Source: a virus (lineage: Duplodnaviria > Caudoviricetes). From it: a stretch of 46,695 bases of DNA. The stretch is from positions 1 through 46,695 of IMG/VR virus record IMGVR_UViG_3300037846_000042. The stretch is one strand, 5' to 3'. Position 1 is the stretch's first letter; each line of letters begins with the position of its first letter. Positions 1 through 46,695 of this stretch are shown here, one piece after another. Position numbers and translations under genes: made by a program. The notes under the pieces are model-generated. The model was not told the origin of the DNA. It did not search any database and worked only from the letters and a program-made list of their open reading frames with translations.

Positions 1-170
1 ATCGGATACTCAAGCAGCCGCAATATTTGGCAATTGCGCAGCGTCGTCGGCACGGCCACGCATGAGCCGTTGACCTTGCGGGCCTCGGGCAGGTAGTGCT
101 CCACGCGCGCGGGATCGCAGCCGCGGTAGACCAACAGGTTCCTGTTGCGATCGTGGTAGAGGTCGATCAT
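1..170 (-). CDS. N-terminal part of the SNF2-type helicase (continues at 46695)
   Basis: ATG at 170 overlaps the upstream stop (ATGA); reads MIDLYHDRNRNLLVY...LRLLEYP with no stop to position 1 and joins in frame to IQKGYKPLAHQKLMANF at the other end. Confidence 0.75.
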   Translation of the reverse strand, partial: MIDLYHDRNRNLLVYRGCDPARVEHYLPEARKVNGSCVAVPTTLRNCQILRLLEYP

Positions 171-463
171 ACGAACGGCATCCAGATATGGCCATTGTCG
201 AGACGACGGAGCTGATAGCCACACATATGTCGACGCGCAAATTCCTTGCGGACAATCAAGCCGCTTGGCGCAAGTCGCGCGTTGAGATAGGTGACAAGAG
301 TCCAAATTATGTGCTCACTCTCGGGGCCGCCATCAGGATCATCTTCATATAGATAATCAAAAATTTCTTTTCGCATAACGCCGTGCGGATGCGTAGCCAC
401 AAACCAAAAAATCTGCTTCATCCTGCCGGACAAAGCGCGAATCACTTCACCTTTAGTCGCCAT
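167..463 (-). CDS. Hypothetical protein, winged-helix/OmpR-C-like DNA-binding
   Basis: 98 aa; EIFDYLY...IWTLVTYLNARL...GYQL resembles the response-regulator wHTH pattern; tightly packed in the operon. Confidence 0.5.
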   Translation of the reverse strand: MATKGEVIRALSGRMKQIFWFVATHPHGVMRKEIFDYLYEDDPDGGPESEHIIWTLVTYLNARLAPSGLIVRKEFARRHMCGYQLRRLDNGHIWMPFV

Positions 464-1141: not shown

Positions 1142-1797
1142 TTAGGTTTCCTGTTATGTTTGCAATCCATCACGGGACACCAGCCGCAAAGCGCACCTGG
1201 CGTCTTCTCGAACGTTTCCATCTTGATCGCGTGCGCCACGTCATCCATAGTCTTGTGGACGCGTTTCCACGTTGTCGCAGTGTCCGAGCAGTCGTGCGGC
1301 TCGCCCAGGCGGTTTTCCTTGAGCCAGACGTAACGACCGACGATCATCTTGATCTCGGGGTGCTTGGCCTGGAGCAAGAGCGCTTGAATTTCCAGCTCGT
1401 AAGGGTCCTCGCGCACCTTGCCAGTCTTCCAGTCAAGCAGCACGGCCGACTGCTGGCCGACGATCGGCGCATCGAGCTTCCCGCGCAGCCACACGGAGCT
1501 GTCCCAGAAGCCCACAGCGGCGCCCTGCGCCGTGATGCCGAGCTTCATCTCGGGTACGACGCCACGTCCATCGAGCGCCGCGGCGAACGGCTCGTACTGA
1601 GCGAAGCGATCGACCAGAGGATGCGGCGCCGTGGGGTCGAGACGCTTCTCCATGGCGTTGTGCACGTCGTTGCCGTACTTCATTTCGGGCGACTCGGGTT
1701 CCTTGGGCAAGTCCTTGATGATATATTTGCGCGCGGCCTGATGATTGCAAATCGACCACGTATTTAAAAATGTGTAGCTGGCTACGGGAAGGTTCAT
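1138..1797 (-). CDS. PD-(D/E)XK (Cas4/RecB-like) exonuclease
   Basis: Start reassigned to MNLPVASY; G..VH..ME, RGKLD, LLDWKTGK and C-terminal LCGWCPVMDC Fe-S-type cysteines. Confidence 0.85.
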   Translation of the reverse strand: MNLPVASYTFLNTWSICNHQAARKYIIKDLPKEPESPEMKYGNDVHNAMEKRLDPTAPHPLVDRFAQYEPFAAALDGRGVVPEMKLGITAQGAAVGFWDSSVWLRGKLDAPIVGQQSAVLLDWKTGKVREDPYELEIQALLLQAKHPEIKMIVGRYVWLKENRLGEPHDCSDTATTWKRVHKTMDDVAHAIKMETFEKTPGALCGWCPVMDCKHNRKPK

Positions 1798-1919
1798 AGC
1801 TTTTTCCAAACGATCCAGGCACAGATGAGGACTGCGATAGGGCCGGCGACGACCGCCCACGCCAGCAGCAAGTCGACCACCAATCGCGCCTGGTTCTCGA
1901 TGGCAATCGGAGGGATCAT
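1794..1919 (-). CDS. Small membrane protein
   Basis: 41 aa MIPPIAIEN...AWIVWKKL, one hydrophobic helix, ATGA overlaps. Confidence 0.45.
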   Translation of the reverse strand: MIPPIAIENQARLVVDLLLAWAVVAGPIAVLICAWIVWKKL

Positions 1920-2083
1920 CGCACTATCCTGAACAACCGCCGACCGGATGCGAGCGCGGCGCGATATTGCTCGATCGTCAGTCCGAAACACCATGCTTCG
2001 TAGCGCCGTATGTATTCGTCGCTCGGCATTCCGGCCTGGAACTCCGCAAGCGAGCAAGTGTATTTGAAAATGGGCTCGGTCAT
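1916..2083 (-). CDS. Hypothetical protein
   Basis: 55 aa MTEPIFKY..., ATGA overlap with the upstream gene. Confidence 0.5.
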   Translation of the reverse strand: MTEPIFKYTCSLAEFQAGMPSDEYIRRYEAWCFGLTIEQYRAALASGRRLFRIVR

Positions 2084-2382
2084 TTGAACACCACGGCCAA
2101 GGTATCGATCACGCGCGCCGCTGCCGCGGGTTTGAGCGTCCGCAAATGGATGAGGCACGCCTTGAGTACCATCATATCGGGTGCTTCCTCTTTGGCCGGC
2201 TGCGCAGCCTCGATCTCGGCGCGCGTGCGGCGTTTGCGCCTAGGCGCGGGTTCGGCATCACCTCCTTCCTGTTGCGTTGCATTATGTTGTCCTCCCGGAT
2301 TGGATGGCGGTTGGGAATCGGACATCACCTCCTTTCCCGTTGACTTCGGTCGTGCGGCGCGGAAACTGAATGTGTCGGTCAT
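2080..2382 (-). CDS. Hypothetical protein with basic RKRRTRAEIEA motif
   Basis: 100 aa; a similar KRTRRTKAQMEA motif occurs in the SSB-like protein. Confidence 0.6.
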   Translation of the reverse strand: MTDTFSFRAARPKSTGKEVMSDSQPPSNPGGQHNATQQEGGDAEPAPRRKRRTRAEIEAAQPAKEEAPDMMVLKACLIHLRTLKPAAAARVIDTLAVVFK

Positions 2383-2516
2383 TTCGGCTCCTTCTTCGCT
2401 CGCTCATACCTTCTCAACAGCTCCTCGAACAGGAGCAAATTAGTATTGCTGAACCAAGCCGACACTTGCTTGCGCAAGAGCGCGATCAGCTCGGCGTCAC
2501 TTAGGTTGTTTTGCAC
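2379..2516 (-). CDS. Hypothetical protein (start uncertain)
   Basis: LSDAELIALLRKQVSAWF...RYERAKKEPK fills the gap between neighbours; GTG at 2516 chosen tentatively. Confidence 0.4.
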   Translation of the reverse strand: MQNNLSDAELIALLRKQVSAWFSNTNLLLFEELLRRYERAKKEPK

Positions 2517-2973
2517 GTTTTCGCCCCAAATACGCTTTTGTTTTTGCGCGTCCACAGGCGCGACATTGCCGCATGACGACCTTTCCGCCTCGCCACACAT
2601 AAGTATTTTCTGGCGTAAATTCGTGGCCACTGTCGCAGTGGGTCTTTCTAAAGTTGACGCCGCCAAACCCACGGCCTCGACGTAAGTTTTCTAATCGCGT
2701 CACAGGTTCAAGGTGATCAGGATTGACGCAGCAGCGCAAGCGGCAAAGATGATCAAGCTCAGAAGGTGGGAGGCGCCCATGTTTCAAAACGTAAGATACG
2801 ATATGCGCGCCTGTGTTCTTGTGCGTCCCGCGCCGACCAATAGTGAATCGACCGTAGCCGGCTTTGTCCATTTCTCCGAGCCACAGCCAACACCCCGACA
2901 TAGGTTCGGGAATGTAGCTGCGCTCAAAGCGCGCCGACACGTTGCGCAGCATGGTTGCTAGACTACTTCTCAT
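2497..2973 (-). CDS. HNH homing endonuclease
   Basis: PEPMSGCWLWLG, AHIVSY, LDHLCRLRCCVNPDHLEPVTRLEN, C-terminal KTHCDSGHEF...CRAC. Confidence 0.9.
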   Translation of the reverse strand: MRSSLATMLRNVSARFERSYIPEPMSGCWLWLGEMDKAGYGRFTIGRRGTHKNTGAHIVSYVLKHGRLPPSELDHLCRLRCCVNPDHLEPVTRLENLRRGRGFGGVNFRKTHCDSGHEFTPENTYVWRGGKVVMRQCRACGRAKTKAYLGRKRAKQPK

Positions 2974-4807
2974 AGCGACTTCCGTAGTTCCCCTCCGCAT
3001 CGAGTGGGAGATCGGGCGCCCAAGAGGGCGGCACTTTCAGAGCATCCAAGCAATACTTGAATTGCTTCTCGCTCCACACCGGGTCTTTACGAATCAGTAT
3101 CCAAATTTCGTCGTGGCTCATTCCTACCACGCGCATCCCGGCGCGGCTGATCACTTTCATCGCCTCGCCTACGATCTCCCTAGCCAGAGCCTCGCACACG
3201 TGCTGCACCAGCTTGGAACCCCACATGCGGGTCCAGCCTTGCCGGGTCTTGAGCTTGTAGCCGGTCGGGAAGCCTTTCTCATCGGGTTCGTGATCATAAG
3301 TCAGCGTGTCATAGATCAGCGGCACGCCGGAGGGGGTGTACATGCGATGGTTCTCGATCCGCATCGGACCCCATTGGGTCGTCTCGCCGTTGGCCAGGCA
3401 GCCTAGGATTTGCTCGGCGGCTCGCCAGTAGGCCGTGACCGCAGTGTGGCTGCTGCGGTAAATAGCGACTCTCCGATCTCCTTCAGCCTCGCTGATAATA
3501 ATGGGAGGTCCGTACAGGCCGATTGCAGCTGTCTTTGTAAATTTACGACCCCCGCAGCCATACCCACACATAAGTTCGCCTTGCTTGCCAGCTCCTCGCT
3601 TAGCTGTAAGCTCGTCTCGTCTGGGATCGGAGTCAGCAGGCTTGTAGATTCGCTCTCCATAGAAGGCACTGGCGAGTTCGGCGTAGGGGTCCTCATGCTT
3701 TCGAAACTTGTCAACGACATCCCATTGTCCGGCGAGCCAGTTGAGGAGGCGGCACTCGATCTGGGAGGAGTCGATGACGGCGAGGTCGTAACCTTCGGGG
3801 GCAAGGATCGTACTTCTAAGCGCGTGCCCTCTTTTGAAGTTCTGAAAGTTGCTACCATCCCCTCCGCTCCAGCGAGTCGTAAGGGCTCCTGCGTAACGGA
3901 GATAAACGCATAGTGGCCCGCGTCCAGCCATAAATCCGAGCGACTCAACTCGGCTTTGGATAGCCGTGGATTTGATGCCGAGACGCGCGCGAGCCAGCCC
4001 GCTAACTCTTGGATCGTCATGATCGAGCAGCTCCTTCATGAAGTCATCGGTTTTGGCAAAGGCGTAGATCGGGCCGTTCTTTCCTTGCTTCAGAGCCGGT
4101 TCCACACCTTCCTGGCGCAATAGATCAGCAAAGCGATCAGCAGACTGAAGATCAGCAGCGCCGATCCGTAGAGCAGAAAGAACATCAAATTTTCGCTCAT
4201 TTTCCTCGCTCCAAATCTTGCCGAGCAGATCGATGTCGCCGCGCAGCGTGGGCTCGGTAAACATTCTAATCGTACAATCTACTAGCTCGTATTCGCCCTT
4301 CGGAAAGTCCTCAGCCAGTCGCTGAAACAGCGCCCATATGCTTTCCACCTCATCCTCGCACCCCTGCGCCACCAGGCGCTGCACGTCGGGCGTCAGCTCG
4401 TGCCAATGTCGTCCTTTGAACAGCTCGTAGGGGGTTTGCTTGGCCGACATATTAAAGTGCTTGCGGACGCTATCCAGGCTAACAGACAGATGATTGCCCA
4501 GAAGAAGACGAGCCATGGATAAAGTATCAAAAATAAAACGAGGCCGCACACCGTAATGATGAGCAAGTATAAGACAATCAAATTGCGCATGATGGCAGAT
4601 GACAGCCGTGTCAGACCAATCCTGTTGCGCCAATACTTTCTTGAGTGCGCTCTCATTGTACCACCCCGCAGGCTCGTTTGCGCTCCACTTGATCGCCGCG
4701 CCGTGGGCTTCGAACCGCGGATCGCGAATGTAAGACTCGGTCGTCATTTTTGACAGAGTGAACTCGGTCGAGAAAAAAGTTTCGAAGTCCAAAGCGATGA
4801 TTCTCAC
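2963..4807 (-). CDS. Family A DNA polymerase with 3'-5' exonuclease
   Basis: Exo I LDFET, Exo II HHAQFD, motif A DSSQIECR, motif B R...K...L..GYG, motif C SHDE. Confidence 0.93.
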   Translation of the reverse strand: MRIIALDFETFFSTEFTLSKMTTESYIRDPRFEAHGAAIKWSANEPAGWYNESALKKVLAQQDWSDTAVICHHAQFDCLILAHHYGVRPRFIFDTLSMARLLLGNHLSVSLDSVRKHFNMSAKQTPYELFKGRHWHELTPDVQRLVAQGCEDEVESIWALFQRLAEDFPKGEYELVDCTIRMFTEPTLRGDIDLLGKIWSEENERKFDVLSALRIGAADLQSADRFADLLRQEGVEPALKQGKNGPIYAFAKTDDFMKELLDHDDPRVSGLARARLGIKSTAIQSRVESLGFMAGRGPLCVYLRYAGALTTRWSGGDGSNFQNFKRGHALRSTILAPEGYDLAVIDSSQIECRLLNWLAGQWDVVDKFRKHEDPYAELASAFYGERIYKPADSDPRRDELTAKRGAGKQGELMCGYGCGGRKFTKTAAIGLYGPPIIISEAEGDRRVAIYRSSHTAVTAYWRAAEQILGCLANGETTQWGPMRIENHRMYTPSGVPLIYDTLTYDHEPDEKGFPTGYKLKTRQGWTRMWGSKLVQHVCEALAREIVGEAMKVISRAGMRVVGMSHDEIWILIRKDPVWSEKQFKYCLDALKVPPSWAPDLPLDAEGNYGSRYEK

Positions 4808-5061
4808 TCGCCCGGCCCTTCCGCAAGACTGCGCTTCTCTGCTGCAACGGCTGCGTCAACTCGATCTCTCGGCAGCCACACCACAAGGCCGATTTTCTTT
4901 GTCTGGCCGCCGCCGAACAGTTCCTCCGCCTGAATGCTGTTCGTGTAGAATGTGATCTTTGTTCCGTGCTTGGTTTTGTCGACAGAATGCGCGTCGTTCA
5001 ATAGGTTTTGAAAGACGACGTTTTCGTCGCCAACCGCTAAGATCAATTCGGACATCTTCAT
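4804..5061 (-). CDS. Hypothetical protein
   Basis: 85 aa, overlaps neighbours by 4 nt. Confidence 0.65.
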   Translation of the reverse strand: MKMSELILAVGDENVVFQNLLNDAHSVDKTKHGTKITFYTNSIQAEELFGGGQTKKIGLVVWLPRDRVDAAVAAEKRSLAEGPGE

Positions 5062-42518: not shown

Positions 42519-43640
42519 TCAAGTCTTCAGTCCGAACACATTGGCGAGTGCCGACTCCAGCTCGGCGTTGGGAGCCGGGGCGTTGTTCACGATTCCCCCC
42601 ACCTGTTGCGCCGCAGGCTGCTGCTGGAAGGGCGCGGTATGCGGGGCGTGCTGTTGCGCTGCCCGCTGGAGGAACGGCGGGATGCCGGTGTCTTGCTGGC
42701 CGCCCTGGGCCGCCTGCGCGTCGGCTTCCATCTGCGCTTTGGTGCGGCGGGTACGCTTAGGGGGCTCCGCTGGAGTGCCCGCAAACGGCGCAGAACCACC
42801 GGCCTGTGTCGGCTGGAAAGGCGCTGTCGCGGCCTGAGCACCAGCAAGCTGGGCAGGCACAGGAGCCAAAGGGCGTTGCTGAGCGATCTGCGCCGCCTGC
42901 CCACTCCACACCTGATCCCCGCGGCCCACCAGGGCGTCGGTGATCTTCTGATCGAGGAACTTGGTCACCAGCGCCTCGGTCCCCTCGTCGGTGAAGCCCG
43001 CGGCAGCGAAGTCGAGCTGCCCCACCTGGCCGTGGACGAAGGTAATGCGGGTGACGACCTCGGACACGTCGAAATCCTGGCCACCGAACTTGGCCGAGTA
43101 GGCCCGCAGGTTCTCGTGGCTCATGACCGGCACGCGCAGCAGGAACGGGAAATCGTAAGTCTCATTCGGAGCATAAGTCCCGTCAGGCTGGACGGCGCCG
43201 ATGACCGGCAGGACCGCTACCTTCTTGATGACGTGACACGCCTTGACGGGCTTGCCGGTGACCTTGCTGGTGGCCGACCCCCATGTGTTCTGCGGGCACG
43301 TCATGCAGCTTGTGGACTGCGGCTGGGCGGCCTGGGCCGACGCTCCGATGCCGTTATCCGAGAAGCAGGCGGGCGGCTCGTACACGTCGCTGTTGGGGTT
43401 GTAGACCTTCTCGCCCCAGAACACGCGCGACGGCACGTTAGTGTCAATGATCACGCAATCGAGCCACTTGGTCTCGACCGGCTCCTGCTCGCCGTTAGCG
43501 TCCACCAGGGTGAACGAGCCGCCCTTGATCGACACATAAGGCGGCGACGCCATCCCGAGGCCCTGCACGACGGCCTGGACGATCTGGCGGCGGTTCTGAC
43601 GGTTGGCGAAGCGAGCAGGCAACTGGACTTGTTGGGTCAC
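42519..43640 (-). CDS. ssDNA-binding/replication protein
   Basis: VSIKGGSF, P.CFSDNG, C.TCPQN.WGS...GK.VKAC, typical of this helicase-primase module. Confidence 0.65.
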   Translation of the reverse strand: MTQQVQLPARFANRQNRRQIVQAVVQGLGMASPPYVSIKGGSFTLVDANGEQEPVETKWLDCVIIDTNVPSRVFWGEKVYNPNSDVYEPPACFSDNGIGASAQAAQPQSTSCMTCPQNTWGSATSKVTGKPVKACHVIKKVAVLPVIGAVQPDGTYAPNETYDFPFLLRVPVMSHENLRAYSAKFGGQDFDVSEVVTRITFVHGQVGQLDFAAAGFTDEGTEALVTKFLDQKITDALVGRGDQVWSGQAAQIAQQRPLAPVPAQLAGAQAATAPFQPTQAGGSAPFAGTPAEPPKRTRRTKAQMEADAQAAQGGQQDTGIPPFLQRAAQQHAPHTAPFQQQPAAQQVGGIVNNAPAPNAELESALANVFGLKT

Positions 43641-44056
43641 TAAATTTCTCCTTTTTTGCGAAGGGTGTTGCAGGTTCCGCAGTAGCGCATGAATCCACCA
43701 GTTTTCAATTTGTATGTAATTGAGAACTCATGCCCTCTGATACAGAGTGTCTTTTGCATGTTCGCAGCAGTAGGACCTATGCCGCGTCGCGTATTCTCGC
43801 GCCGCGTTACCGGCTCCAAATGATCAGGATTGACGCAACATCGTACTCGACAAAGATGATCGAGTTCAAGCCCTTTCGGAACAGGACCAAACTTTTGTTC
43901 GTACAAAATTTTATGTACGATGGTTGTCTCTTTGGAATGCCTGCCGCGAGCTATTTGCGCATAACCGTGACTACCCACTGAGCCTGTCCAGAGCCAACAT
44001 CCACTGTTGGGCTCTGGAGATATTTTTGTATCGATTCTATCAAACACAGAGAGCAT
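43640..44056 (-). CDS. HNH homing endonuclease
   Basis: PEPNSGCWLWTG, LDHLCRVRCCVNPDHLEPVTRREN, KTLCIRGHEF...CGTC. Confidence 0.9.
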   Translation of the reverse strand: MLSVFDRIDTKISPEPNSGCWLWTGSVGSHGYAQIARGRHSKETTIVHKILYEQKFGPVPKGLELDHLCRVRCCVNPDHLEPVTRRENTRRGIGPTAANMQKTLCIRGHEFSITYKLKTGGFMRYCGTCNTLRKKGEI

Positions 44057-44058
44057 GA

Positions 44059-44460
44059 CTAACTCTTGGGCATATTAATTCGATCGATGAACGAAACCTC
44101 GACACCGGGCGGCGGCTTGCCGCTCGACGACTCGATGAACTGCTTAACCGGGTCTTTGACGGCGTTGACCGTCATCATCTCGGCGCCCAGCGTCGACCAG
44201 TTGTCAAGGCAGAATTTCATGAACTCGTCGCGCGCCACCACCTTGACATTCATGATCGTGGATTTGTAGGGCGTGCCGAACTCGGTCTTGGAATTGGTTG
44301 AGCCACGCTCGTTGAACCGGCGCAGGAACTCGTTCTTGATGGTTTCCATGCCGTCCTTGTATGGCTTCAACTCCGTCGCAAGCATGGCCTCTTGAGCAGA
44401 AACATGCGCTGAGAGTTCTTGGTACTTCTGGACGAGCGCGTCGTCTTTATACTCGTTCAT
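44059..44460 (-). CDS. Replication-module protein
   Basis: N-terminal coiled coil, SKTEFGT.YKS, PPPGVEV; lies between helicase and SSB. Confidence 0.7.
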   Translation of the reverse strand: MNEYKDDALVQKYQELSAHVSAQEAMLATELKPYKDGMETIKNEFLRRFNERGSTNSKTEFGTPYKSTIMNVKVVARDEFMKFCLDNWSTLGAEMMTVNAVKDPVKQFIESSSGKPPPGVEVSFIDRINMPKS

Positions 44461-46695
44461 ATCTTCCCTTCCCTCACCATTTGCAGCAGCAGGCCTTGCA
44501 GGCTCTCGTTCGTTTCCAGGCGGCGGAATATTTCGCGCTCCAACTTGTTGCTTACGATTTGGACCACGGTAACGGGGTGTTTTTGACCCGGCCGATGCGC
44601 TCGCTTGTTGGCCTGGAGATAGAGTTCGGTCTTGTCCGTGCTTCCGAACCAGACGACTGTTTGAGCCATCCAGAGATTGAGGCCATGAGCCATTGTGCCT
44701 GGGTCGGCGATGAGCAATCGCAGATCACTTTGAGCGGATTGGAATCGCTCAAATATATCTGAACGCTCTCGCTGGGGGACTTCGCCATTGACAACCTCGC
44801 ACTTGTGCTTTGTGCTGATTACGGACTTTATGCGGTTAACGACGGAAGTCAAGGGGGCAAAAACTAAAAGTTTGCCGGGAGCCTCGTCAATGATCCGGTC
44901 CAGCTCGGCATAGCGCGGCGCCGCGTCAATCAAATGCGCCTTGTGGTCGCTGTCATATATCGCGCCGAGACTGATCTGGATAAATTTCTGCCTCGCCGCC
45001 GCCTCGTTGGCCGCCGTGATGGGATGCCCCGACTTGACCACGATCTGCAAGTCACGCTTGAGCTGCGCCATAGCGCGCTTTTGCTCGTCTGTGAGCGCAA
45101 CCTCGCGCTGCTGCGTGGTCATGGGCGGCCCGTCCCACACGTCGCGAATGTCGAACCGGATGGCGGGAGTCAATAGCTTGCGCGCCTCCTCGTTAGCGCC
45201 GGCGCGCGGTATCCATTTGAACTGGCTCAACCGCATCATGGTCCGGTTGTGGAAGCTGGAGTAGGATTCTCCTTTTCCATTGTTGACAAGCTTGGCCAGT
45301 CCATATGCATCCGTAGGTCCATTGGGGGTCGGGGTGCCTGTAAGCAGCCAAAGGTAGTCTCGTTGTCCAAGAACCAGTCTTGCGATCCGATGGCGCTTAG
45401 TCGTGCTATCTCGATAAGCGCTTGCTTCGTCAATGAGGGCAAGTCGTATGTCTGCTCGATTTGCAATTTCCTGCGACAAGCCGTCGAGCTTGAACTGCTT
45501 TCTGGTCTTGGCTCCAACTCCCACACCATCGAAATTGATAATGTAGAAGTCGCAATTAGTTCCGAACTCTTCTGCGCGCTGGCCAGCGCTTCCGTGCGCA
45601 ATTGCAAAAGTGCGTCGACCAAGAAAGTTCGCAAAGATTGCGTCGCCCCATACACGTTGGAGGATGCTGAGTGGTGCGACGATGAGAGCACGGCACTCTC
45701 CCTTCGGATATTGCGACATGACAAAATCGGCGGCCCACAGGGTCGCAAGCGTTTTCATCGTATTGTGATTGCACAGTCCATGCGCCACATAGTTCTCGTG
45801 CGTCGGAACGTGCATGTCGTAGTAGACATCCGTTCTTTCATATGCGATATGGGTCACAGTGTCAAATGGAGAACGTAATGCCCGCTCATAAGGAATACAA
45901 AGTCGCAATTCCTGATCTTCGCCAGTTGCTCGAAGCCGGTTGGGGAACAGGCGATATCGCGCGGAAATATGAAATGAGCTACAAGTCAGTTTGGTGGCGT
46001 ATTCGGAAAGAAAAGCTCCCGTTCCACCCCGATCGATCCGGCCGCCATAACGGGTCCTGGAAAGGCGGGCGTCAGCAGACAGGACGCTATGTGTACATTC
46101 ACTGCCCGGAACATCCTTTTGCCACTCAAAAGGGTTGTGTCTTGGAGCACCGCTTGGTGATGGAACTGAAGTTGGGACGATATCTGCTTCCGTCAGAGGT
46201 TGTTCATCACAGACGGGGATATAAGAATTCTGAAAAAAATCTTCAGTTATTCGCAACGAATGGCGCGCATTTGGCAGCAACTCTGAAAGGCAAGGTGCCC
46301 AAATGGACTGTTCAGGGTAAACGTCGAATACGGGAAGGGATTCGCCGGTCTGTAGCTGCTCGCAAGAAGTCCAACCGCGAGAAGTCAAAAAGACATGCCT
46401 AGCTGTAACGACGATCTGCCGTCCAGACTGAAACGAAACGCGATAAAGTTTGTCAAAGCCCTTCCTGAACGGCGGGTCTATTTCGACAAAGCGCGGACCT
46501 TCGTTCGTCAATGTCCGAACTTTGAATCGCCTGCCGTAAGAAAGTCTCTCAATTGATTGCGGGCCTTCTAAGGTATCGATCAGCGTCTCACCGCCAACAC
46601 AGCCCATGTCGCTGAGATTAAAGCATCTAGGGTGCGTCACCATGAAATTAGCCATGAGCTTCTGGTGCGCGAGCGGCTTGTAGCCCTTCTGGATC
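44457..46695 (-). CDS. SNF2-family helicase, intein-containing (N-terminus at 170..1)
   Basis: Q-motif PLAHQ; Walker A DMG|TMKT split by the intein; LIVAPLS, IDEAS, LTGTP, HGLNL, QANKRAHRPGQ. Confidence 0.92.
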   Translation of the reverse strand, partial: IQKGYKPLAHQKLMANFMVTHPRCFNLSDMGCVGGETLIDTLEGPQSIERLSYGRRFKVRTLTNEGPRFVEIDPPFRKGFDKLYRVSFQSGRQIVVTARHVFLTSRGWTSCEQLQTGESLPVFDVYPEQSIWAPCLSELLPNARHSLRITEDFFQNSYIPVCDEQPLTEADIVPTSVPSPSGAPRHNPFEWQKDVPGSECTHSVLSADARLSRTRYGGRIDRGGTGAFLSEYATKLTCSSFHISARYRLFPNRLRATGEDQELRLCIPYERALRSPFDTVTHIAYERTDVYYDMHVPTHENYVAHGLCNHNTMKTLATLWAADFVMSQYPKGECRALIVAPLSILQRVWGDAIFANFLGRRTFAIAHGSAGQRAEEFGTNCDFYIINFDGVGVGAKTRKQFKLDGLSQEIANRADIRLALIDEASAYRDSTTKRHRIARLVLGQRDYLWLLTGTPTPNGPTDAYGLAKLVNNGKGESYSSFHNRTMMRLSQFKWIPRAGANEEARKLLTPAIRFDIRDVWDGPPMTTQQREVALTDEQKRAMAQLKRDLQIVVKSGHPITAANEAAARQKFIQISLGAIYDSDHKAHLIDAAPRYAELDRIIDEAPGKLLVFAPLTSVVNRIKSVISTKHKCEVVNGEVPQRERSDIFERFQSAQSDLRLLIADPGTMAHGLNLWMAQTVVWFGSTDKTELYLQANKRAHRPGQKHPVTVVQIVSNKLEREIFRRLETNESLQGLLLQMVREGKI
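45762..46601 (-). mobile_element. Intein (280 aa) in helicase Walker A
   Basis: Block A CVGGETLIDT, block B IVVTARHVFLT..GW, block F DVYYDMHVPTHENYVAHG, block G NHN followed by Thr +1. Confidence 0.93.
45878..46402 (+). CDS. HNH endonuclease encoded antisense within the intein
   Basis: GGAGA RBS; 174 aa with HTH-like N-terminus, NGSWKGG, YVYIH.PEHP, VLEHRLVME..LGRYL...EVVHH...KN...NL. Confidence 0.85.
   Translation: MPAHKEYKVAIPDLRQLLEAGWGTGDIARKYEMSYKSVWWRIRKEKLPFHPDRSGRHNGSWKGGRQQTGRYVYIHCPEHPFATQKGCVLEHRLVMELKLGRYLLPSEVVHHRRGYKNSEKNLQLFATNGAHLAATLKGKVPKWTVQGKRRIREGIRRSVAARKKSNREKSKRHA

Follow-up and report, generated by a model that had tools for sequence, protein, structure and literature searches.

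An HNH endonuclease gene antisense to the intein of a phage SNF2 helicase

Introduction

What moves an intein whose own polypeptide holds no recognisable endonuclease, and what is the role of a nuclease gene that lies on the strand opposite it? The question is raised by a soil phage represented by IMG/VR virus record IMGVR_UViG_3300037846_000042, the whole of which (46,695 bp) was analysed and is called here the window. Near one end of this record, the gene for an SNF2-family helicase is interrupted by an intein, and the opposite strand of the intein carries a gene for a protein with a helix-turn-helix (HTH) domain and an HNH nuclease core. An initial annotation, made from the letters of the sequence, had proposed this arrangement and had suggested that the intein frame is kept free of stop codons over a nuclease gene whose expression is uncoupled from that of the helicase.

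The layout is real: the window holds a helicase intein with an intact HNH gene on its opposite strand. The element is under selection on both strands, the same arrangement recurs in inteins of several unrelated phage ATPases, and the HNH nuclease likely drives the spread of the intein.

Results

Intact splicing lobes surround an unconserved spacer

The intein lies within the Walker A motif of the helicase, because its first residue, Cys, follows ...NLSDMG and its last two residues, His-Asn, precede TMKT. Its splicing blocks are intact, as had been stated at the outset, and comprise C1, T66-A-R-H69 of block B, D262 of block F, H279-N280 and T+1. The Pfam family Intein_splicing (PF14890; cut-off 35.8 bits) scored 36.0 bits in the whole protein and 39.3 bits for the 280-aa intein taken by itself; the TIGR01445 score on the intein, 22.3 bits, fell under the cut-off of 24.5. 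Residues C1, H69, D262, H279 and N280 are invariant across 56 aligned inteins (alignment A2), and a profile of these inteins found the DnaB mini-intein (1e-26) and Mtu RecA (1e-17 and better) in the PDB. The mini-intein matches were confined to profile positions 2-106 and 255-292, which correspond to the N- and C-terminal lobes of the Hint domain.

An AlphaFold2 model of the intein gave the same division. Residues 1-95 and 241-280 form beta strands with values of pLDDT (predicted local distance difference test) of 86-99, and residues 100-235 have values of 42-52 and no secondary structure. No family in Pfam, PHROG or NCBIfam matched residues 96-240, in agreement with the earlier remark that the middle of the intein lacks a recognisable domain. 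We considered whether the spacer could be an independent domain and rejected this on account of its low conservation and low pLDDT; it is predicted to be disordered and is not conserved, yet it is stop-free. A group I intron was also considered as an explanation of the insertion and was dropped, as Rfam returned no family at E<=1 in positions 44400-46695.

The opposite strand encodes an HTH-HNH protein

On the plus strand, an open reading frame (ORF) spans positions 45842..46402, and its homologues begin at the MP encoded from the ATG at 45878. The start was placed there by alignment A1, which holds 27 sequences (the window protein and 26 homologues), and this upholds the 174-aa antisense ORF, preceded by its own GGAGA, of the initial annotation. 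The ORF lies opposite intein codons 67-242. Its TAG stop overlaps codons 67-68 (A-R of TARH), as first described, and the 3′ end of the gene shares its DNA with residues 67-95 of the Hint N-lobe; the strand opposite the Hint C-lobe holds the ribosome-binding site and the 5′ leader. The start had originally been placed just inside block F, and here a correction is needed: the ATG is opposite codon 242 and the ribosome-binding site opposite codons 244-245, a few codons before that block.

Five PHROG families of HNH endonucleases matched the window protein, with E-values from 2.5e-22 to 6.4e-4. The HNH identity that had been read from sequence motifs thus stands, and profile searches of the two strands find the two expected halves, Intein_splicing on the minus strand and HNH on the plus strand. 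At E<=1e-3 the protein has 138 homologues, 20 of them 57-74% identical to it; among the remoter homologues, the majority contain PF13392 (HNH_3). Among the 27 sequences of A1, HNH_3 was found in nine (best 6.3e-11) and HTH_23 in 15, and H122, H123, N129, N133, N140 and H143 (A1 numbering) are invariant in all 27. Which of these invariant residues are catalytic we take, as an assumption, from the motifs of HNH_3.

The AlphaFold2 model of the HNH protein built from A1 has a mean pLDDT of 79.9. In VIA structure comparisons, its N-terminal part matched the HTH domains of GcrA, a resolvase and Tc3 with middling Z scores (4.2-5.0), and the model matched I-PpoI with a Z of 4.2; a profile of A1 searched against the PDB gave matches restricted to HTH-like chains. 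About a third of the close homologues possess an extra N-terminal HTH repeat of ~45 aa (A1 rows P0006, P0009-P0012, P0015, P0016, P0018 and P0020), and the DNA-binding part therefore appears to be modular and to have been duplicated in some lineages. A terminator scan of positions 45300-46695 found two terminator-like sites, which is no excess over shuffled sequences.

The antisense layout recurs in inteins of unrelated ATPases

Neither the HNH protein nor the intein, each used as a single query against IMG/VR, found any relatives; an alignment-based scan succeeded, matching 600 stretches, of which 381 encode an HNH relative. Loci were analysed for the best 80 of these 381. In all 80, some frame on the opposite strand is open over the full HNH match, and in 79 of the 80 the HNH gene lies antisense inside a long ORF and shares the codon register seen in the window.

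Clustering at 80% identity sorted the long ORFs on the opposite strand into 62 groups, and 60 representatives (L078 and L079 being left out) were searched with Pfam. Intein_splicing was found at E<=1e-3 in 52 of these 60 host ORFs (28/30 and 24/30 in two sets), many of the matches lying under the Pfam cut-off. The hosts include SNF2 helicases, large terminases (Terminase_3 and Terminase_6N), clamp-loader-like proteins with DNA_pol3_delta2/AAA matches and an AAA_33 protein. Aligned to the window intein, 57 of 61 non-redundant segments have Cys at its first column and Asn at its last, and in most of these 57 an S, T or C comes next and the surroundings are those of Walker A, G/[STC]GK[ST] or GK/[ST], where the slash marks the insertion point. 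The other four segments are cut or misaligned, and A2 also omits L062 and L071, the C-terminal ends of which are badly aligned.

Among loci L001-L080, the insertions into Walker A occupy two registers. The first, between G and [STC]GK[ST], is that of the helicases, many terminases and the clamp loaders, and the second, between GK and [ST], is found in another terminase type (e.g. ...NRxGK/C...HHN/T). Further PT-HINT and Hint_2 matches far from the HNH-bearing intein, in the ORFs at 1227-5021 (minus strand) of L027 and 1698-4850 (minus strand) of L030, suggest that each of these two genes holds a second intein. Fusion of Hint and HNH in one frame is rare in this subfamily, since HNH_3 and Intein_splicing occurred in one chain in only one of 11 longer-protein matches.

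A tblastn search of 50,697 phage records added 41 distant matches, some of them in cultured phages. Pseudoalteromonas phage PHS3 (KX912252.1; 1179-3305) has a 708-aa terminase ORF containing a C...HHN/SGKS intein. In its annotation the terminase is shortened to the part after the intein, the ORF on the opposite (plus) strand is called 'HNH endonuclease', and the 708-aa ORF is absent. The same layout is present in Pectobacterium phage Ymer, in a 754-aa 'hypothetical protein' adjoining the portal gene, and here it is the 232-aa antisense HNH ORF that the annotation lacks. Going by the match list, similar matches occur in another six Pectobacterium phages and in a Dickeya phage.

The HNH frame is selected as protein and the intein frame is kept open

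The two genes overlap in a fixed register, with codon position 1 of the HNH gene opposite codon position 1 of the intein. Stop codons were counted in 63 non-redundant HNH genes, namely the 62 cluster representatives and the window. The three antisense frames contained 304, 455 and 1 stops, and the sole stop found in the intein register lies in the free-standing gene of locus L006, described below. Shuffling synonymous codons within each gene led to an expectation of 4.3 stops per gene in this register, so that the dual coding with a stop-free sense frame, as originally suggested, is borne out. For the window gene itself, 3.9 intein-frame stops were expected, and because none of 200 synonymous shuffles was stop-free, the antisense frame is open to a greater degree than chance would allow. 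It follows from the genetic code that a stop in the intein frame requires NTT, NCT or NTC in the HNH frame followed by a codon that begins with A. Synonymous choice can avoid these combinations, and the register therefore allows the demands of both frames to be met.

Substitution patterns differ between the two frames. In the HNH core, differences per site were 0.38, 0.30 and 0.65 at codon positions 1, 2 and 3 of the HNH frame, and the 3 > 1 > 2 order was repeated in binned pairs, a set in which four rows (L001, L021, L042 and L043) are out of codon register. Selection is thus not limited to the sense frame, the result that the initial annotation had set against its own reading. Amino-acid identity in the core is 55% for HNH and falls to 23% when the same DNA alignment is translated in the intein frame, and across regions of the gene it is 12-23% in the intein frame where it is 24-55% in the HNH frame. 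The tail of the HNH protein, opposite Hint residues 68-92, aligns poorly in the HNH frame (14.6% identity). The intein frame is most variable at its own second codon position, which is the reverse of the pattern of a selected protein. As judged from these alignments, the HNH frame alone shows amino-acid selection; for the intein frame, the constraint is to stay open.

Signals for translation of the HNH frame are also retained. In 44 of the 63 genes an in-frame ATG is preceded, at a distance of 4-17 nt, by a Shine-Dalgarno core (GGAG, GAGG or AGGA), compared with 7.7% of 5,810 other ATG triplets; the genes have ~2.4 candidate ATGs each.

Related helicases lack the whole insertion

Alleles without the intein, anticipated at the start with the context DMGTMKT, were found. 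All 11 of the IMG/VR helicases nearest to the C-extein lack an insert at exactly the site used in the window; they are 62-76% identical to it, save one at 37%. Six have the context ...SDMG/TMKT..., identical to the joined exteins, three have ...DMG/VGKT... and two have ...MG/TGKT.... The three with Val at +1 are L084, L086 and L091 (at about 2495-2506), and since Val is unable to act as a splicing nucleophile, these alleles may be non-permissive for the intein.

Where both parts of the element are present, their divergence is correlated. Between pairs of elements, identity in the Hint lobes (the overlap being left out) is correlated with identity in the HNH core at r 0.37, a value that none of 1000 permutations reached.

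The helicase gene spans the ends of a circularly permuted record

The helicase ORF (Table 1) gave Pfam matches to SNF2-rel_dom (1.5e-12, residues 312-510) and Helicase_C (9.3e-11) and a match to PHROG 62, 'DNA helicase', at 4.1e-81, which begins at residue 314, just past the intein. It is open at the end of the record, and its N-terminal part lies at the other end. Bases 2, 1 and 46695 form one codon of the helicase frame, and in BLASTP the minus-strand frame at 3-305 matched the N-extein of L001, the nearest intein-bearing helicase, at E 6e-12. The record is circularly permuted, and the helicase gene spans both of its ends in frame. A second HNH gene (43640-44056, minus strand; PHROG 826 at 1.5e-40) is free-standing and unrelated to the one in the intein. 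It lies two genes downstream of the helicase and on the same strand as its neighbours.

Table 1. Features of the helicase locus in the window; pLDDT values are from the AlphaFold2 models
Feature	Coordinates	Strand	Remarks
Class-1 intein, 280 codons	45762..46601	-	In Walker A (DMG, then C1...H279-N280, then TMKT)
Hint N-terminal lobe, residues 1-95, blocks A and B	46317..46601	-	pLDDT 93-98, beta strands
Intein-frame spacer, residues 96-240	45882..46316	-	Stop-free; complementary to the HNH gene
Hint C-terminal lobe with blocks F and G (D262, H279, N280), residues 241-280	45762..45881	-	pLDDT 86-99
Antisense gene for predicted HTH-HNH homing endonuclease, 174 aa and TAG	45878..46402	+	PHROG, 138 homologues
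Shine-Dalgarno sequence GGAGA	45868..45872	+	5 nt before ATG 45878
N-terminal three-helix HTH DNA-binding domain	45917..46009	+	Helices at model residues 26-56, pLDDT 81-86
HNH (His-Me finger) catalytic core	46061..46294	+	pLDDT 90-96; invariant H/N residues
SNF2-family phage helicase gene including intein	44457..46694	-	Open to record end; Pfam, PHROG
Helicase N-terminal part (~100 codons)	3..305	-	3′ end open; frame joins across record ends
Helicase C-extein, begins TMKTLATLW...	44457..45761	-	62-76% identity to 10 intein-less IMG/VR helicases

Discussion

A probable mobile element with its nuclease on the opposite strand

We consider it probable that the Walker A intein and its antisense HTH-HNH gene work as a mobile element, in which the nuclease is predicted to be expressed and to nick or cut empty alleles, so that repair copies the element into them. 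The helicase precursor would be translated through the spacer, perhaps merely a tolerated loop at the usual point of endonuclease insertion, and the intein would then splice itself out. A plus-strand transcript would arise from a promoter inside the helicase gene, and the HTH domain of the nuclease would guide it to the uninterrupted ...GACATGGGC/ACGATGAAAAC... region, where it would probably nick, as I-HmuI does. Repair of a nick or cut in an intein-less helicase allele would then copy in the whole element. The arrangement may have originated when a free-standing HNH gene entered a mini-intein in inverted orientation, the survivors being those insertions that, with later mutations, left the essential host frame open.

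Several results weigh against this account. The HNH protein of the window has no Pfam or NCBIfam match of its own. The structural evidence is of middling strength, the top VIA match of its model being I-HmuI (1u3e_M) with a Z of 6.1 and a root-mean-square deviation of 2.9 A over 70 residues, and Foldseek found nothing in the PDB below E 0.4. A scan for sigma-70-type promoters in positions 45300-46695 returned none on either strand, although the consensus used may not be that of the host. The locus analysis covers the best 80 of the 381 confirmed IMG/VR relatives, and one of these 80, at L006 4010-4528 (plus strand), is a free-standing 172-aa HNH gene that is not in an intein; it sits between small minus-strand genes and so is oriented against its neighbours. 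Finally, the co-variation of Hint and HNH is moderate, the nearest HNH neighbour being among the top three Hint neighbours for 27 of 56 inteins, and some shuffling of nuclease and intein is therefore likely.

The last two of these points, the gene at L006 with its orientation and the limited agreement of the two parts of the element, are what would be expected if the HNH gene were an independent selfish gene that uses the intein as a safe harbour and homes into mini-intein alleles or from one intein to another. Judged by the HNH core, moreover, the nearest relatives of the window after L001 are terminase inteins with Hint lobes 25-41% identical to its own. Such independence is nevertheless unlikely, because all 11 of the nearest helicase alleles lack the entire intein and none holds a mini-intein, 79 of the best 80 relatives (of 381) reside within inteins, and the correlation between Hint and HNH divergence lies far above every permutation.

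Domestication of the nuclease is less probable still and would surprise us. Some phage HNH proteins assist terminases, and a nuclease serving in phage exclusion, packaging or replication might use the intein only as housing; many of the carriers are large terminase genes, and the window contains the second, unrelated HNH gene in free-standing form. The same nuclease family is also present, however, in helicase, clamp-loader-like and AAA genes, and its patchy distribution, with the closest helicase relatives lacking HNH, fits a selfish element and not a needed function. It is hardly credible that the plus-strand ORF is a silent relic in a mini-intein with a long junk loop, left open because the element is young, for although the promoter scan was empty and the five sequencing runs listed for the region, of which two are possible sources, are all soil or rhizosphere DNA metagenomes, none of them RNA, the HNH proteins keep their catalytic residues and the 3 > 1 > 2 pattern at 35-60% identity, the Shine-Dalgarno sequence is kept in most of the genes, and an unexpressed antisense ORF would soon accumulate stops.

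Implications of the antisense layout

This reading of the element invites a broader proposal, which has a real chance of being right, though we lean slightly against it. The HTH-HNH subfamily may be almost confined to antisense genes in P-loop inteins of unrelated ATPases, the register may be adaptive, and intein and nuclease may hop together. If so, the inverted register, position 1 on position 1, would let the HNH protein keep its sequence while synonymous choices keep the host frame open; the nuclease would be expressed on a schedule of its own; selection acting on the host gene would police the element against disruption; and intein and nuclease would move jointly among the P-loops of SNF2 helicases, large terminases and clamp loaders.

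The consequences for annotation are more immediate. For this HNH subfamily the antisense layout is the rule, so that phage 'large inteins without endonuclease' and orphan 'HNH endonuclease' calls probably represent, in many cases, the two parts of a single element, and the truncated terminase of PHS3 beside its 'HNH endonuclease' and the unannotated nuclease of Ymer are examples. Because these carriers are cultured phages, expression, splicing and homing can be tested in them directly. The overlap is a clean natural case of long antisense dual coding (about 520 nt) in which one frame encodes a selected protein and the other is only open, and it should be useful for the study of the evolution of overlapping genes. 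New site-specific nickases could also come from such compact HTH-HNH enzymes, the targets of which in P-loop codons would be long.

Comparison with known systems

Novelty was overrated in the initial annotation, for nuclease genes on the antisense strand of inteins have been published. Anti-sense LAGLIDADG ORFs were described in the DnaX intein of Synechocystis and in the intein of a SpoVR-like protein from Chloroflexus (Gorbalenya 1998; Gogarten et al. 2002, as cited in bioRxiv 10.1101/2025.01.02.630785), and the main text of the same preprint describes actinobacteriophage inteins with anti-sense LAGLIDADG and VSR-like ORFs and with an out-of-frame EndoVII-like ORF. These anti-sense inteins, as that text presents them, resemble the one in the window in having a contiguous, presumably splicing intein whose splicing blocks flank a nuclease ORF read from the other strand, an in-frame middle without recognisable structure and signs of ongoing invasion. 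They differ in that the nuclease of the window is an HTH-HNH protein (HNH_3-like) and its host an SNF2 helicase interrupted in Walker A, and in that the antisense layout is here the usual state of a whole subfamily (79/80 loci), in which the register is fixed and the avoidance of stops was measured. All five mentions of HNH in the main text of the preprint refer to in-frame HNH, and in the literature that we searched we found no paper describing an intein with an HNH gene on its antisense strand.

Other systems share parts of the arrangement. An in-frame intein of HintN and HNH_3, reported to splice (PMC6293099), likewise has Hint lobes and, between blocks B and F, a nuclease of the same broad HNH_3 type; there the nuclease is within the intein polypeptide, as described, whereas in the window it is a separate, reversed gene and the polypeptide has only the disordered spacer. 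The ShiLan insertion in mycobacteriophage methylases (Arsenault, Gosselin, Gogarten 2025, PMC11855218) contains a 'hidden' out-of-frame HNH gene over an in-frame, stop-free stretch inserted into a phage gene, with an in-frame product that has no known fold and with homing-like behaviour. That gene, however, is described as lying on the same strand in another frame, with no splicing domain and no ribosome-binding site detected, and the insert is thought to be retained in the host protein; the HNH gene of the window is antisense, lies inside a bona fide intein with intact Hint lobes and has a clear ribosome-binding site. In 'fractured genes', a free-standing GIY-YIG or Vsr-like endonuclease gene is reported between the halves of a split intein (Dassa et al. 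2009, PMC2677866), which supports a model in which free-standing nuclease genes invade inteins. Their hosts are divided into two ORFs that are joined by trans splicing, as that paper describes, whereas the window has one continuous frame with zero intein-frame stops. I-HmuI of phage SPO1 (PDB 1u3e), an intron-encoded HNH nicking endonuclease and the best structural match to the core of the window protein (23% identity), is likewise a nuclease built of modules, with DNA binding assigned to a separate part; unlike the window gene, it resides in a group I intron and has different DNA-binding modules, and the structural match itself is of middling strength.

The HNH family thereby joins the short list of inteins whose mobility nuclease is a separate antisense gene. 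Because the HNH nuclease differs from the LAGLIDADG and VSR-like types so described, the element is a new variant of the antisense-endonuclease intein architecture, and it is a member of a large and apparently undescribed HNH branch of this known but rare design.

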